Made by a program: the position numbers and the translations under genes | The notes under the pieces: model-generated | The model's database searches: none | What the model saw: only the letters and a program-made list of their open reading frames with translations | Told to the model about the DNA's origin: nothing | From: an uncultured Candidatus Saccharibacteria bacterium | GTDB lineage: Bacteria > Patescibacteriota > Minisyncoccia > Phycocordibacterales > UBA9973 | DNA length: 64,000 bases | Assembly (NCBI GenBank): GCA_964474435.1 | Contig: CAYYSI010000001.1 | Location: forward strand, 126,647-190,646 | Direction: 5' to 3' | In this document: piece by piece, positions 6,519 through 48,417 of the stretch | How positions within the stretch are numbered: position 1 is the stretch's first letter | Layout: the number at the start of each line of letters is the position of its first letter

Positions 6519-7127
6519 ATGCTCGATTTCACCTCCTACAACCCCCAACGCATATTCCTCGTCCAAGGAAATGATGAGCAGTATGACGCAATCATTGCTG
6601 AGGCTAAAAGTAGTTGGCTGATCGTGCAGACATTGTCGGTGTCGCGATTTACGGTTGATCACGCGCATGATGTCGCATCATTTGCAGTAGAAGGAAGTGG
6701 AAGTGAGCGTATGCTTGTTGTGTACTTTTCAATATTCTCGCCAGATGCGGCACAAGTACTTTTGAAATCTCTTGAAGAGCCGGACGAGCTCACAACTATC
6801 GTCTTTGTCACTCCATATCCATATATTGTGCCGATCACTATCCGGTCGCGTGTCATGTTGTTGCAAACAGAGCGATCAGCAATCGTCCCGACCAAACGCA
6901 CGCACGCGCAAGCATTGCAGTATGTCAAAGATGAACTCTCGAGTGACTCTGATGACGATGCAGCAACACGCCGTGCAAAGGCCGTAGTATTCTTGGACGA
7001 ACTTGAAACACTCTACAAATCTGATCCAATGAAATCGCAAACCATCTACGATGCCAAACGCATGCTGTTCAAGGCAAACATGCCGACGAAATACGTGATG
7101 GAGTATGTTGTAACGGCCATACTTTAG
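6519..7127 (+). CDS. DNA polymerase III clamp-loader delta'-like subunit (HolB-like, short form)
   Basis: LLKSLEEPDELTTIVFVT...TIRSR resembles the delta'/gamma-tau LLKTLEEPP...TIxSRC sensor motifs. 202 aa is short for this family. Confidence 0.5.
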   Translation: MLDFTSYNPQRIFLVQGNDEQYDAIIAEAKSSWLIVQTLSVSRFTVDHAHDVASFAVEGSGSERMLVVYFSIFSPDAAQVLLKSLEEPDELTTIVFVTPYPYIVPITIRSRVMLLQTERSAIVPTKRTHAQALQYVKDELSSDSDDDAATRRAKAVVFLDELETLYKSDPMKSQTIYDAKRMLFKANMPTKYVMEYVVTAIL

Positions 7128-11322: not shown

Positions 11323-12594
11323 ATGTCTCCTGATGCATTTATTGCAGTTGTCTTTCACCAAGTCGGTGTGTTTTTAATCTTTGGTGCTATTGCAGTGATC
11401 GCATGGAATGTGTGGCTGCAATACATCAACATGGTGTACCTCCGATCGATTGATTGGGTCATCCTCGAAATCGTCCCACCCAAAGAAGTCCACAAATCTC
11501 CTGAAGCAATGGAGCTCGTATTGAATGTGTTTAACGGAGGAGGTGCGGGCAACTGGTACGAAAAATATTGGAAAGGTGAGCTCGCGCAATACTACTCACT
11601 CGAGATCGTATCGACTGAGGGCAAGGTGCATTTCTATGTTCGCTTTGCCAAGAAATTTAAAAAGGCATTTGAAGCACAACTCTATGCGCAGTATCCGCAG
11701 GCAGAAATAAAAGAAGTCGAGGACTATACGAAAAAGATCCCGAGCTCTGACTTTGGCAAGAATTCTCCGATCAGTATGTTTGCGTATAACCTCAAGCTCA
11801 AAAAGGAGGATCCGTATCCGATCAAGTCATATATTGATTTCGGTCTTGATCGGGCCGTGGGCTCACTCGAAGAAGAGCAGCGTATTGATCCAATCACGCC
11901 CACTATTGAAACAATGGGTTCTATTGGTATCGGTGAGCATATTTGGGTACAGATCAATTTCCGCCAAGCAGTAAAACGTCATGAGGTGAAAAAGGGCGAG
12001 GAGATTGAAAAAGAAAAAGCGTGGACGGACAAAAGCAAAGAAATCATTGCCGGACTCAAAGCTGCTGCAAATACCAAGGATGCCGAAGGCAAGGTTACTG
12101 CAGGGCGTTTGAGCAAAGGCGAAAACCAAGTCATCGAAGCCATCGAGCGACATCGAAACAAGCCGGGCTTTGACTGTGGCATACGTGTCCTCTATGTTGC
12201 AAACAAAGATAACTTTAGTGGCAACACGATCTCTGCATTTACGGCAATGTTTCGTCAGTACAATACCGAAGACATGAACTCGTTTAGTATGGGCGACCTC
12301 ACCAAGACCCCTGATGCAATGCCGTGGAAGGATCCATTTGATAAAAAGGTAAAGAAAATGAAAAAAGATTATCTCGATGATTACAAAGACCGTGCATTTT
12401 TCTACGGAGGATTTCGGTTTGACAAGATCGGCAAGTATTTCACGCATCCAGAAAATTCTGGGAGCAAAGGGTTCGTCCTTTCGAGCGAAGAGCTCGCAAC
12501 GATCTATCACTTGCCAGGTCGTGTTGCAGAGACACCAACTGTCGGTCGTATCGAGTCCAAGAAAGGGGAGCCACCAGCAAACCTACCTATTTAG
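11323..12594 (+). CDS. Membrane-anchored hypothetical protein (423 aa)
   Basis: N-terminal TM helix followed by a large soluble domain. No family recognised. Confidence 0.5.
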   Translation: MSPDAFIAVVFHQVGVFLIFGAIAVIAWNVWLQYINMVYLRSIDWVILEIVPPKEVHKSPEAMELVLNVFNGGGAGNWYEKYWKGELAQYYSLEIVSTEGKVHFYVRFAKKFKKAFEAQLYAQYPQAEIKEVEDYTKKIPSSDFGKNSPISMFAYNLKLKKEDPYPIKSYIDFGLDRAVGSLEEEQRIDPITPTIETMGSIGIGEHIWVQINFRQAVKRHEVKKGEEIEKEKAWTDKSKEIIAGLKAAANTKDAEGKVTAGRLSKGENQVIEAIERHRNKPGFDCGIRVLYVANKDNFSGNTISAFTAMFRQYNTEDMNSFSMGDLTKTPDAMPWKDPFDKKVKKMKKDYLDDYKDRAFFYGGFRFDKIGKYFTHPENSGSKGFVLSSEELATIYHLPGRVAETPTVGRIESKKGEPPANLPI

Positions 12595-27299: not shown

Positions 27300-27701
27300 A
27301 TGGCAACTACAGCAACAAAGAAATACATCGAAACTATCGGCCGACGCAAGACTGCTACTGCTCGCGTGCGCATCACTCCTGCTACAAAGGCTAGCTACAC
27401 CATCAATGACCTCGCACTCGAAACATATTTCCCAACAGCAGAGCTCCAAAAGATCGTTACAGATCCATTCAAGGTTGCTGAGAAGGCATATGCAGTGACA
27501 GTACTCGTCAAAGGTTCTGGTATTCACTCACAGGCCGAAGCAGTACGACACGGTATCTCTCGAGGTTTGGTCAAAGAAGATGAATCTGACAAGACCAAGC
27601 TCAAATCAGAAGGCTTCCTTAAGCGTGATCCACGATCAAAGGAACGACGCAAATTCGGTCTCAAAAAGGCTCGAAAGGCGCCTCAGTGGTCAAAGCGTTA
27701 A
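27300..27701 (+). CDS. rpsI: 30S ribosomal protein S9
   Basis: C-terminal KRDPRSKERRKFGLKKARKAPQWSKR. Confidence 0.9.
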   Translation: MATTATKKYIETIGRRKTATARVRITPATKASYTINDLALETYFPTAELQKIVTDPFKVAEKAYAVTVLVKGSGIHSQAEAVRHGISRGLVKEDESDKTKLKSEGFLKRDPRSKERRKFGLKKARKAPQWSKR

Positions 27702-27713
27702 TACTCTCAAAAG

Positions 27714-27737
27714 ATCTCCAAAAGGAGGTTTTTTGTT
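27714..27737. terminator. Intrinsic terminator after rpsI
   Basis: ctcc-aaaa-ggag followed by ttttttgtttg. Confidence 0.5.
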
Positions 27738-27764
27738 TGACCCAGTGCATATCTTTTGCTAGTA
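27736..27764. promoter_or_regulatory. Near-consensus promoter TTGACC-17-TAGTAT
   Basis: Read directly. It drives the ORF-less unit below. Confidence 0.5.
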
Positions 27765-27770
27765 TCCATT

Positions 27771-28115
27771 TAACAAGTGTTTTCGCGAAAGCGGACTAAA
27801 ACCTGAAATCTTCGAAGGATGTGCCTTTGATAGGACATAAGGTCGGTTCTTTACACAATAAAGATATGAACATATCAGTGTATTTATATCGAAAGGTTGA
27901 TCCAGTTACAGATCATCTAGTTCGCGAGAGGGGTGACACCCAGACCAATGGTTAAGGCCGTTAACAAGAAATTAAGAAGGTGCGCGGAGTACCAAATTAA
28001 ATTCCAAGAGGCAAATGCCCGCCGATACTTTGGGGGATAGCTGAATTTTTTTAATTCGTCTGATCTCGGTAGTAAAAACACACTTTTAAAGAGCCTGTTA
28101 TACAGGCTTTTTTTA
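27771..28115 (+). ncRNA. Candidate structured non-coding RNA (unclassified), about 345 nt between a strong promoter and an intrinsic terminator
   Basis: No ORF longer than 29 aa on + and no SD-like start. Local hairpins present (tcgcg-aaa-gcgga). Ends with agcctgt-tata-acaggc followed by T7 (28092-28115). RNase P, tmRNA and SRP signature strings not found by eye. Confidence 0.35.
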
Positions 28116-28144
28116 TTCCCAATTTTCAGTATAATCATGACTAT

Positions 28145-28708
28145 ATGGAAGTCACTAACGACATAGAAATGGACCCAGAGTTTGTGGAATCAAACGAAGA
28201 CGGGGATGAACTTGCCGGCTCTACGCAGGTCAAGAAACTCCAGGAGAAAATAAAGGCACTGGAGAAAGAAAAGACTGAATACCTCGATGGTTGGCAGCGT
28301 GCACGAGCGGATTACGCCAACCTTCAAAAGACTACTGACGAAGATAAAAAAAGATTTCGTGAACACTTCGCAACTCGCTTTGTCGAAGACCTCCTGCCAG
28401 TGATCGACAGCTTCAACATGGCCATGTCCAACAAAGAAGCATGGGAGAAAGTCGATCCAAACTGGCGCACAGGGGTAGAGTATATCTACGGCCAACTCAT
28501 GAACGCCCTCGGCGAACACAACCTCGAAGCCTTTGGTGAAAAGGGAGATCTCTTTGATCCCGTACTCCACGAAGCTGTCTCAGAAGTAGAGACAGGGGAC
28601 AAGCGATATGATCACCGGATTGATACAGTGCTTCAGCAAGGGTATAGACTAGGGGATACAATACTTCGTGCGGCGCGAGTAACTGTGCTCGTATATAAAG
28701 AAGCATAA
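28145..28708 (+). CDS. grpE: Nucleotide exchange factor GrpE
   Basis: Coiled-coil N-term, DYANLQKTTDEDKKRF, DLLPVIDSF. Confidence 0.9.
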   Translation: MEVTNDIEMDPEFVESNEDGDELAGSTQVKKLQEKIKALEKEKTEYLDGWQRARADYANLQKTTDEDKKRFREHFATRFVEDLLPVIDSFNMAMSNKEAWEKVDPNWRTGVEYIYGQLMNALGEHNLEAFGEKGDLFDPVLHEAVSEVETGDKRYDHRIDTVLQQGYRLGDTILRAARVTVLVYKEA

Positions 28709-28764
28709 TTGACTTATCCTCAATAATATGGTATTGTTTTATTGAACTTTAAAACAATTACGAA

Positions 28765-29076
28765 ATGAAAACATGTTGTGTCCTTTTTATTGCCATTATT
28801 CTTTTTTCTGCATGCCAGGAAAAAAACGTGTATGAAAGAGTTACTATCATCAGGAAGATTTCTATCGAAGAAATGCATCCGCCTCTACTACTAGCAAGAC
28901 CTCTTGCGGCTAAACAACTCCTTGATGGTTCATGTTACGTATTAGTGGAGGCTTCTGATCACTACCAGTACGTTGTTGTAAATCCAAAATGTGAATATCC
29001 TAACCGTGCCACTGTTAGGGTTTCCGTGGATACTAGTGGCAATAAATTCCCGGTGATACTTCATCGAGTGAAATAA
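28765..29076 (+). CDS. Small lipoprotein, hypothetical
   Basis: Signal peptide with lipobox LFSAC. Low GC. Confidence 0.45.
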   Translation: MKTCCVLFIAIILFSACQEKNVYERVTIIRKISIEEMHPPLLLARPLAAKQLLDGSCYVLVEASDHYQYVVVNPKCEYPNRATVRVSVDTSGNKFPVILHRVK

Positions 29077-29097
29077 TTTAGTAAACAAATGTTTAAA

Positions 29098-29124
29098 AGC
29101 TCCTTATTTAGGGAGCTTTTTATT
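29098..29124. terminator. Bidirectional terminator
   Basis: aaaagctcc-ttattta-gggagctttt. Confidence 0.55.
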
Positions 29125-32066: not shown

Positions 32067-32112
32067 GCCCTGAAATAATTTATTAAACACAAATTATTTC
32101 AGGGCTTTTTTT
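32067..32112. terminator. Long-stem intrinsic terminator
   Basis: ccctgaaataattt...aattatttcaggg followed by ttttttt. Confidence 0.65.
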
Positions 32113-32135
32113 ATTTCTCACATATGGTATAGTAC

Positions 32136-32213
32136 TCACACCTATGAACAAGAAACGAAAAGTAGCTGCAAAAAAGAAGCGCAAGAAGGATGGCAAGACC
32201 GTCTCTCTACGAC
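32136..32213 (+). CDS. 25-aa highly basic micro-ORF with its own promoter-like -10 and terminator (not in track)
   Basis: MNKKRKVAAKKKRKKDGKTVSLRHR. Followed by the hairpin cccgc-tacaag-gcggg plus T-run at 32225-32250. Confidence 0.3.
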
Positions 32214-32287
32214 ATCGATAATCCTCGTATTGTCATAGAAAATCCCGCTACAAGGCGGGTTTTCTTATGGGAAAAATGTGGTAAAAT

Positions 32288-39660: not shown

Positions 39661-40578
39661 TTAGATCCAGCGACGTAGTTTAAAGAAGACGAACATGACG
39701 ACTCCTGTGACAAACATCGCAAAGATAATGAAATAAAAATCTTCAAGTGATTTGATAAAGATAATGTTGTTGACAGTGTTCATCCCAAAGACTCCTGTGA
39801 TAAGCGTCAGTGGCAGCATCACAAACGTCATGATGGTGAAGTTTTTCATGATCTCGTTTGATTTCGTACTGAGGAGGGAGTCGTTGGTGCGCTGGAGTTC
39901 GGCGAGCACATCGCGATGGCTCTCCAGTATTGAGTTCACTTTGCGGTATTCACTCGTGATGAGCTCTGCATAGTATGCGTATTCTTCGCCAAAGAGGCGT
40001 TTGGAAGCAGATTCGTAGCTGTGGAGTACTTCACCATGAAAGCGAATGGACTGTTTGAAATCGAGAAGCTTGCGGGAAGTCGCAGAGATGCGGCGCACCG
40101 TTGAGACTTCGTGACTTTCAAAGATTTTGCGTTCGATGTCTTTGATGGTTTCGGTGAGTTCTTCGAGTTCGATGAGTGACTTGTGATAAAACTCCTTCAT
40201 CATCTGCATGAAAATGTAGCCGCCGTGATGTGCCATTTGCGGATCTTCGTGTAGGCTGTGTGCTTCAAATATTTTTGCAAAGTTGCTGATGCGTTCGATG
40301 GCTTCGTAGCGCACAGTAATAATGAATGACTTGCCAATAACAAAGTCGATCTCTTGTTCGGTGCTTGAGGGCACCTGATTGCCAATGACGGGGAAGTGGA
40401 GGATGAGGTAGAGGAGGTTGGGATAGAGATCTACTTTGGATCGAAGCGTATGGTCAGACATCTCTTGGCCGACGAGGTGCGGAAGCCCAAATTCTTGGAC
40501 AATATGTGCTGTTTCGTCAGCAGTCGGGGACTCGAGGTCGATCCATGTCAGCCCATGGGCGGCAAAGCGAGTAATCAT
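39661..40578 (-). CDS. corA: Magnesium/cobalt transporter CorA
   Basis: C-terminal two TM with the GMN motif (VFGMNTVNN). 305 aa. Confidence 0.85.
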   Translation of the reverse strand: MITRFAAHGLTWIDLESPTADETAHIVQEFGLPHLVGQEMSDHTLRSKVDLYPNLLYLILHFPVIGNQVPSSTEQEIDFVIGKSFIITVRYEAIERISNFAKIFEAHSLHEDPQMAHHGGYIFMQMMKEFYHKSLIELEELTETIKDIERKIFESHEVSTVRRISATSRKLLDFKQSIRFHGEVLHSYESASKRLFGEEYAYYAELITSEYRKVNSILESHRDVLAELQRTNDSLLSTKSNEIMKNFTIMTFVMLPLTLITGVFGMNTVNNIIFIKSLEDFYFIIFAMFVTGVVMFVFFKLRRWI

Positions 40579-48180: not shown

Positions 48181-48315
48181 ATGAAAGCACACGTTCAACG
48201 AGTAATATCTCTATGGGATTTACTCATATTTGCAAGTCGTGAAGTGCAACCTATCGAAAGAAAGAATGTAAGGAGAGAAGATAGGAGGCGAAAACGCAGA
48301 CCACTCAAACTGTAA
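48181..48315 (+). CDS. 44-aa ORF with Arg-rich C-terminus between two terminators (alternative reading: small ncRNA); not in track
   Basis: MKAHVQRVISLWDLLIFASREVQPIERKNVRREDRRRKRRPLKL. Followed by the hairpin cagcccg-cgag-acgggctg plus a T-rich tail (48322-48352). No clear SD. Confidence 0.2.
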   Translation: MKAHVQRVISLWDLLIFASREVQPIERKNVRREDRRRKRRPLKL

Positions 48316-48417
48316 TAATCCTAAAAACCAGCCCGCGAGACGGGCTGTTGACTTTTATTGTGCCAGGCGTAAAGTTGTGGGAAAGGTAGTCATTTAAAAA
48401 ACTTAAACTCAATACTC

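Follow-up and report, generated by a model that had tools for sequence, protein, structure and literature searches.

The window analysed here, a stretch of 64,000 nucleotides (nt) of genomic DNA, contains between rpsI, the gene for ribosomal protein S9, and grpE a segment of about 345 nt that is flanked by a promoter-like site and a terminator and is devoid of a credible gene, as an earlier note on this DNA had already described. Our preferred reading, which is held tentatively and with somewhat less than even confidence, is that this stretch (27772-28114, plus strand) constitutes an independent, species-specific non-coding transcription unit, i.e., a small RNA (sRNA)-like cargo of a hypervariable genomic islet. 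According to this reading, transcription from a promoter of the form TTGACC-17-TGcTAGTAT would begin near A27772 and stop at a hairpin followed by a U7 tract (28088-28114), yielding an RNA of about 345 nt in which a predicted body of about 320 nt (27772-28087) precedes the terminator. The unit would represent cargo lying between the conserved rpsI terminator and a conserved, near-leaderless grpE promoter, in a slot that in related genomes is taken by unrelated small genes encoding orphan proteins (ORFans) and in some of them by short promoter-terminator units lacking an open reading frame (ORF). Its product would be a small accessory RNA, either regulatory or protein-binding, and not a housekeeping ribozyme or scaffold RNA. 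Activity of the promoter, accumulation of the RNA and any function of the stretch are inferred.

This sRNA-like reading is favoured because of the placement of the promoter and its extended -10 element, the strong terminator, the lack of an ATG in a leaderless position and the strand-specific fold, and because there is a precedent in the same islet in the form of an ORF-less unit of about 110 nt (see below). The putative sigma-70-like promoter (27737-27765, plus strand) comprises a -35 hexamer TTGACC (27737-27742), a spacer of 17 nt and a -10 hexamer TAGTAT (27760-27765) with a TG extension (27757-27758), thereby agreeing with the consensus at 9 of 12 positions in addition to the extended -10. 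The earlier note had placed TTGACC-17-TAGTAT directly after the rpsI terminator, which is borne out except that its coordinates were 1 nt too low. The match carries more weight because of the TG extension and because of its placement, since the cargo promoters (TTGACA) of two related loci, L001 (CAZSWF01) and L016, occupy the same position after the rpsI terminator as TTGACC does in the window. At the other end of the unit the terminator, AAAGAGCCTGT-TAT-ACAGGCTTTTT (hairpin 28088-28112, plus strand, inverted repeat I3), is unambiguous. It folds at -13.0 kcal/mol, its core stem AGCCTGT/ACAGGCT (28092-28098/28102-28108) is lengthened by A/U pairs, and its T7 tail (28108-28114) can be read directly in the sequence, which confirms the hairpin plus T7 that had been seen some 345 nt after the promoter; a simple terminator scan did not list it. 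As judged from its letters, the stretch thus combines a predicted promoter of its own, an intrinsic terminator and the lack of an ORF, as expected for an sRNA gene.

With respect to coding potential, each plus-strand frame has 7-8 stop codons in 118 codons, a density that we estimate to be about that of random sequence of such composition and that argues against a recently broken gene. The longest plus-strand ORF starts with GTG and comprises 44 amino acids (aa; 27821-27955), the longest one with an ATG start lies inside it and comprises 29 aa (27866-27955), and a second GTG-started ORF of 35 aa is located in another frame (27933-28040). The former statement that no plus-strand ORF exceeds 29 aa is therefore correct for ATG starts but fails for GTG starts. 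On the minus strand, an ORF of 73 aa (27917-28138) overlaps both the unit terminator and the grpE promoter. A Pfam scan of these four ORFs gave no match, none of 5.8 billion proteins has three 5-residue words in common with either of the two plus-strand ORFs, and a conceptual frameshift fusion of the 44-aa and the 35-aa ORF found no homologue among 5.8 billion proteins, too. Upon comparison of the antisense ORF with 1.84 billion representative proteins using HMMER it matched itself as its sole relative, the only other match covering 35 residues of a 734-aa protein at 32% identity and in six separate stretches. It forms a singleton protein cluster derived from one NCBI contig of 353,375 nt and is judged to be spurious, in keeping with the first impression that it has no protein-like features. 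Also the observation that there is no start with a Shine-Dalgarno (SD)-like motif is true but uninformative, as only 7 of the 64 genes in the window have such a motif and many genes are leaderless; in a genome that is nearly SD-less and largely leaderless a missing SD motif is no argument against coding. In the leaderless position after the -10 of the unit there is no ATG, and the GTG at 27777 yields 9 aa only.

The predicted fold is suggestive of an extra stability that is specific to the plus strand, but the effect is modest and not convincing. When the terminator is included, the plus strand has a minimum free energy (MFE) of -95.5 kcal/mol and a z-score of -3.65, compared to -0.98 for the minus strand, and for the body without the terminator two runs gave z-scores of -2.77 and -2.6 for the plus and of +0.29 and 0.02 for the minus strand. 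A strand asymmetry as large as that of the body occurs in 5% of 400 background windows of 316 nt drawn from the same 64 kb. In the multi-branched MFE fold the 5' end pairs with the segment just before the terminator. A direct repeat of 13 nt (family D1 of the repeat search) is present on the plus strand, with a first copy TTCGCGAAAGCGG at 27782-27794 and a second copy TTCGCGAGAGGGG, 85% identical to the first, at 27921-27933; apart from it, there are no paralogues or repeats of the stretch within the window. In the MFE fold, a 5' domain is closed by pairing between the palindromic core TTCGCGAA of the first copy and the second copy, the core pattern TTCGCGA(A/G) being alternatively compatible with a local hairpin with a GAAA loop.

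Relatives of this locus were taken as the 80 closest RpsI loci in GTDB, which all come from metagenome-assembled genomes of Paceibacterota, Nomurabacteria or Parcubacteria and of which the best has an RpsI identity of 96%, together with 12 further loci added via the three closest GrpE clusters. The source of the window is a Paceibacterota-like bacterium of the candidate phyla radiation (CPR), and its local gene order is rpoA-rplQ-rplM-rpsI, the gap in question, grpE, a 103-aa ORFan, a PaaX-like regulator on the minus strand, and dnaK. The upstream edge of the gap is given by rpsI (27300-27701, plus strand), the last gene of the rplM-rpsI unit, which is 60-96% identical across the 80 related loci and for which the Pfam domain PF00380 (Ribosomal_S9) was matched on the identical gene of locus L081. 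It is followed by its intrinsic terminator CAAAAGAUCUCC-AAAA-GGAGGUUUUUUG (27708-27735, plus strand), which folds locally at -14.0 kcal/mol and runs into a series of U residues. The downstream edge is the T-rich grpE promoter region ATTTTCAGTATAAT (28104-28144, plus strand), the -10 hexamer of which, TATAAT (28130-28135), ends 9 nt before the ATG at 28145 of grpE itself (28145-28708, plus strand; Pfam PF01025, GrpE, with homologues found). As this block is similar in L001, L002, L004 and L012 and also visible in L003, grpE has its own conserved, near-leaderless promoter, the -10 of which is located 3' of the unit terminator.

The order rpsI, gap, grpE has been retained in 83 related Paceibacterota loci, among them most of the 80, the gap ranging from 39 to 5694 nt in size. 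What it contains differs from genome to genome and consists of small ORFans, in many of which signal peptides, membrane segments or CxxC pairs occur. Even in the three closest GrpE lineages (82-84% identity) there is a 129-aa ORFan in one, nothing (56 nt) in another, and a 111-aa plus a 100-aa ORFan in the third. Gaps of just 56-86 nt in L002, L009 and L099 indicate that the slot can be empty, so that the neighbouring genes do not compel a genome to keep 345 nt between them. Similarity to relatives is confined to two pieces of the gap, namely the grpE promoter block (28104-28144) and, in the closest relative L003 (JAGOVD01), the stem and tail of the unit terminator; otherwise, nothing similar to the stretch was found in 83 relatives up to 6 kb from rpsI. 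Among the loci and collections searched the stretch thus appears to be specific to one species-level lineage, and would at best encode a species-specific small RNA. Because of the hypervariability of the gap, synteny-based covariation cannot rescue candidates found there. The same hypervariability was seen on both sides of grpE in the window (27702-28144 and 28709-29119) and in L001-L106, where the gaps hold unrelated small ORFans, many of which have a signal peptide, a lipobox or a CxxC motif, while rpsI, grpE, the PaaX-like regulator and dnaK stay syntenic around both of them.

An ORF-less promoter-terminator unit of about 110 nt does occur in this islet in two of the relatives, L003 (6686-6835) and L016 (5751-5905). 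Their RpsI proteins share 96% and 72% identity, respectively, with that of the window. The two copies are similar to one another (nhmmer E 3.5e-8), with one compensatory change in a GGCGN/NCGCC hairpin, and the copy in L016 has a promoter TTGACA-17-TAAATT. This unit is likely to be an undescribed small RNA family of the rpsI-grpE islet. In the L003 copy, the terminator (6796-6824) repeats the stem and tail of the window unit, AGCCTG..CAGGCTTTTTTTATT, whereas the L016 copy has only the tail AGGCTTTTTTTATT in common with it. The similarity of the body of the window unit to the L003/L016 unit is not significant (local alignment p 0.3-0.6 against shuffled sequences; nhmmer negative). Like the window unit, the L003/L016 unit resides in the same islet, has its promoter after a terminator and lacks an ORF; in contrast to the latter, the window unit is three times longer and is conserved in none of the genomes searched, whereas the shorter unit is conserved between two.

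A number of observations have to be weighed against an sRNA-like unit in the window. By itself, the promoter match is at chance frequency, as there are 7 such sites in 3.5 kb compared to 5.9 +/- 2.4 in shuffled sequences. The heptamer TTTGACC, which holds the -35, is complementary to GGTCAAA, codons of rpsI, and the -10 is part of an inverted repeat of 20 nt whose arms (27746-27765 versus 27701-27720) are 80% complementary. With both of them located in complementary arms, the two hexamers could be by-products of the symmetry of the hairpin around the rpsI terminator. Of the 400 background windows from the same genome, 5-6% fold as well as the body does, and the G + C content of the body (0.41) is below that of the window (0.44), unlike in many structured RNAs. 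Searches for counterparts point in the same direction. Comparisons of the 345 nt with the 80 + 12 related loci using nhmmer, blastn and tblastx did not reveal any counterpart; two single-sequence covariance models, R1 and R2, which were derived from the stretch's own sequence and predicted structure, gave only chance-level matches (E 0.86-9.5) in 906 kb of related loci; an 18-mer scan of metagenomes of the Joint Genome Institute (JGI) yielded 10 chance matches and three viral exact-word scans chance matches only; and blastn of phage and plasmid collections gave no match. The only other copies found were four contigs from other sequencing runs (SRR13208889, SRR13208899, SRR13208906 and SRR26856460), all of them 100% identical to the stretch, which accordingly offer neither covariation nor a sign of purifying selection nor any population-level signal.

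The same facts might be accounted for by non-functional filler, e.g., the decayed remnant of a cargo cassette or an imported spacer that kept the promoter-like site and the terminator but has no functional product. Although we consider this somewhat unlikely, the slot turns over quickly and usually holds small ORFan protein genes that are bounded in a similar way, the stretch is unique to its species-level lineage, its fold stability lies only at about the 5th percentile when set against other windows of this genome, and L003 has the terminator stem but not the body, just as expected if the interior drifts or is replaced. However, in none of the frames is there residual protein similarity to the cargo of relatives or to the 5.8 billion proteins, and given the random-level density of stops in all frames any gene origin would have to be old. 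Small, densely coding genomes moreover tend to delete junk, the slot being able to shrink to 56-86 nt in relatives, and a strand-specific bias in folding would not be expected of junk. Alternatively, the unit might be a gene for a tiny protein that is translated without an SD motif into a peptide of 29-44 aa (27821/27866-27955) or 35 aa (27933-28040). In an essentially SD-less genome this is conceivable, the more so as the window has other stand-alone small-ORF units of 25 aa (32146-32223) and about 44 aa (48183-48317) and as the ATG at 27866 is preceded by an A/U-rich region, similar to what is seen in internal genes. Yet the typical distance from the -10 to the start of a stand-alone gene is 6-10 nt in this DNA, a position in which the stretch has no ATG, the candidate ORFs would leave a 5' untranslated region (UTR) of 95 nt and a 3' UTR of 50-160 nt, and neither Pfam nor the word search among 5.8 billion proteins lends them a relative, making this explanation decidedly improbable. 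We regard it as very improbable that the stretch is part of a neighbouring mRNA, either as a read-through 3' UTR of rpsI or as a terminator-controlled 5' leader of grpE acting as attenuator or thermosensor. It is located on the same strand as both genes, the unit terminator and the grpE ATG are 30 nt apart, the window has the complementary 20-nt arms mentioned above (27701-27720/27746-27765), and in some relatives structures with compensatory changes extend over the 3' end of rpsI and the sequence after its terminator, which suggests that transcripts run beyond rpsI in this clade. Against this, the rpsI terminator is as strong as that of the unit itself (-14.0 versus -13.0 kcal/mol), and the near-leaderless promoter of grpE is its own and conserved in relatives without the stretch. 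In none of the relatives was the stretch found to precede grpE, as it would have to for a conserved regulator of this gene, and no riboswitch, T-box or thermometer family was matched in the Rfam scans. A cis-regulatory leader of grpE was rejected since grpE and its promoter persist in relatives while the stretch does not, and since the -10 of grpE comes after the unit terminator.

The earlier note had further proposed that the stretch might encode a housekeeping RNA, i.e., RNase P RNA, transfer-messenger RNA (tmRNA), 6S RNA or the RNA of the signal recognition particle (SRP), and this idea did not withstand the scans with Rfam, ARAGORN and motifs at 3 mismatches. In Rfam 15, no family reached its gathering score in the whole window and there was no match at E ≤ 1, while among six matches at E ≤ 10 in 27500-28400 nothing was relevant. 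Four of these six overlap the unit terminator hairpin (three on the minus strand) and two are located downstream of the unit; the single plus-strand match scores 12.6 bits in a scan that reports matches down to about 12 bits. The proposed Rfam comparison thus provided no known family to which the stretch would have to be reassigned. Likewise, ARAGORN found neither a tRNA nor a tmRNA in the whole window. Motif scans were added because RNase P RNAs of CPR bacteria can score below the Rfam cut-offs, as was reported for 10 of 35 circular CPR genomes by Lui et al. 2021 (PMC8172020), the one relevant paper to emerge from a literature search on non-coding RNAs of CPR bacteria, where such divergent RNAs were nonetheless still detected with RF00010 and kept many conserved features. 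Allowing for up to 3 mismatches, neither the RNase P motif CR-I (GAGGAAAGUCCGG) nor CR-IV/V (ACAGAAnnCGGCUUA; ACAGAA..CGGCUUA) was matched on either strand of 27736-28116, the SRP domain IV motif GGAAGGAAGCAGCC had 0 matches in the window at 3 mismatches, and a T-arm + CCA pattern was absent from 27736-28116 at the same tolerance.

Consequently, each of these candidates was rejected: RNase P RNA of type A or B for want of a match to RF00010 or RF00011 at the gathering score or at E ≤ 10 and of CR-I and CR-IV/V; tmRNA by negative ARAGORN, Rfam and T-arm + CCA scans; SRP RNA, with its domain IV hairpin, GNRA loop and GGAAGCAGCC-type internal loops, as its motif is absent from the window and Rfam gave no match; and 6S RNA, as there is no Rfam match at E ≤ 10 and the predicted fold is multi-branched instead of a rod of about 180 nt, at a length of about 345 nt. 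As far as the sequence can tell, the stretch is not a gene for RNase P RNA, tmRNA, SRP RNA or 6S RNA. A highly divergent member of one of these classes that escaped the Rfam models is accordingly extremely improbable. It would fit the size of about 345 nt and the autonomy of the unit, CPR precedents with sub-threshold RNase P RNAs exist (PMC8172020), and none of these RNAs was found elsewhere in the 64-kb window; but besides the negative Rfam, ARAGORN and motif results, no similar sequence accompanies rpsI in the 83 relatives, and the search of 1.84 billion proteins with the spurious antisense ORF as a proxy yielded nothing. As a general observation on these loci, there was no tRNA, tmRNA or Rfam family in the 64 kb, nor in 14-17 related loci of 4-12 kb.

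Amongst known systems, the sRNA-like unit most plainly recalls orphan sRNA genes of variable islets, with which it has in common a sigma-70-like promoter, the lack of an ORF, a terminator made of a hairpin and a U-run, a position between conserved genes in a slot of varying content and the lack of conservation beyond the species. It differs from trans-acting sRNAs, which are typically 50-250 nt long, by its greater length of about 345 nt. RNase P RNA (RF00010/RF00011) is comparable in its size of about 330-400 nt, its stand-alone organisation with a terminator and the predicted helix joining the 5' and 3' ends; the window unit, however, lacks P4/CR-I, CR-IV/V, an Rfam score and conservation at the loci of close relatives. 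It is clearly unlikely that the stretch encodes a structured RNA of about 345 nt belonging to a new class, which would be restricted to one Paceibacterota lineage and carried as mobile cargo of the rpsI-grpE islet. If this were true, not only small protein genes but also RNA genes of the islet would be exchanged among these bacteria with reduced genomes.

To our knowledge, the Patescibacteria (CPR), with their tiny genomes, have almost no characterised non-coding RNAs. If the sRNA-like reading holds, the stretch would be among very few candidate regulatory RNAs in this group, and a fast-turnover islet beside heat-shock genes would be carrying RNA cargo. At present, it amounts to a single unconserved sequence from a single uncultured species that bears on no open question, and at most it adds to a known kind a further unconserved orphan sRNA gene in a variable islet. 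The practical gain is that the stretch has been ruled out as a gene for RNase P, tmRNA, SRP or 6S RNA.

With respect to gene starts in the window at large, many genes have an extended -10 (TGnTAnnnT) just 6-10 nt before the ATG, which suggests that leaderless mRNAs are widespread; examples are found at 11323, 13589, 21187, 28145, 39661-40578 (minus strand), 54739 and 58551. The 25-aa ORF referred to above, MNKKRKVAAKKKRKKDGKTVSLRHR (32146-32223), is highly basic and apparently leaderless and resides between two strong terminator hairpins (32070-32260), and these hairpins also explain the lowest fold z-scores of the window (-5.6 and -4.7). The stand-alone ORF of about 44 aa, MKAHVQRVISLWDLL..., at 48183-48317 has a terminator at about 48331-48347 and is located in a gap of 320 nt that is otherwise ORF-less.

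The 3' end of rpsI itself shows a further peculiarity in related genomes. In 5 of the 80, the last 13-20 nt of the gene are perfectly complementary to the sequence immediately following the rpsI terminator, so that a long stem encloses the terminator hairpin. Its arms are located at 6383-6399/6441-6457 in L003, 6383-6402/6440-6459 in L063, 6371-6386/6430-6445 in L068, 6378-6393/6422-6437 in L074 and 714-726/766-778 in L045. The sequence of these arms varies from genome to genome, L003, L063 and L068 together showing 6 compensatory pairs, and the window has only 7 nt of the enclosing stem, GGTCAAA/TTTGACC, which coincide with its -35 box. Directly after this stem, three of these loci have a G + C-rich, ORF-less block (L003 6446-6700, L063 6456-6541 and L068 6442-6532) with a core of the form GGGGUCGGG-hairpin-GUGGAGGAAGGCAG..CGUUGGAAAACCGUGGG..CCAAA. 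The block has no Rfam match at E ≤ 10 and was not found in the window or in the other 108 loci. It has its own terminator in L003, its conservation reaches across distant Parcubacteria (nhmmer E 5e-20 and 6e-3), its hairpins covary, and it may represent an undescribed RNA motif.

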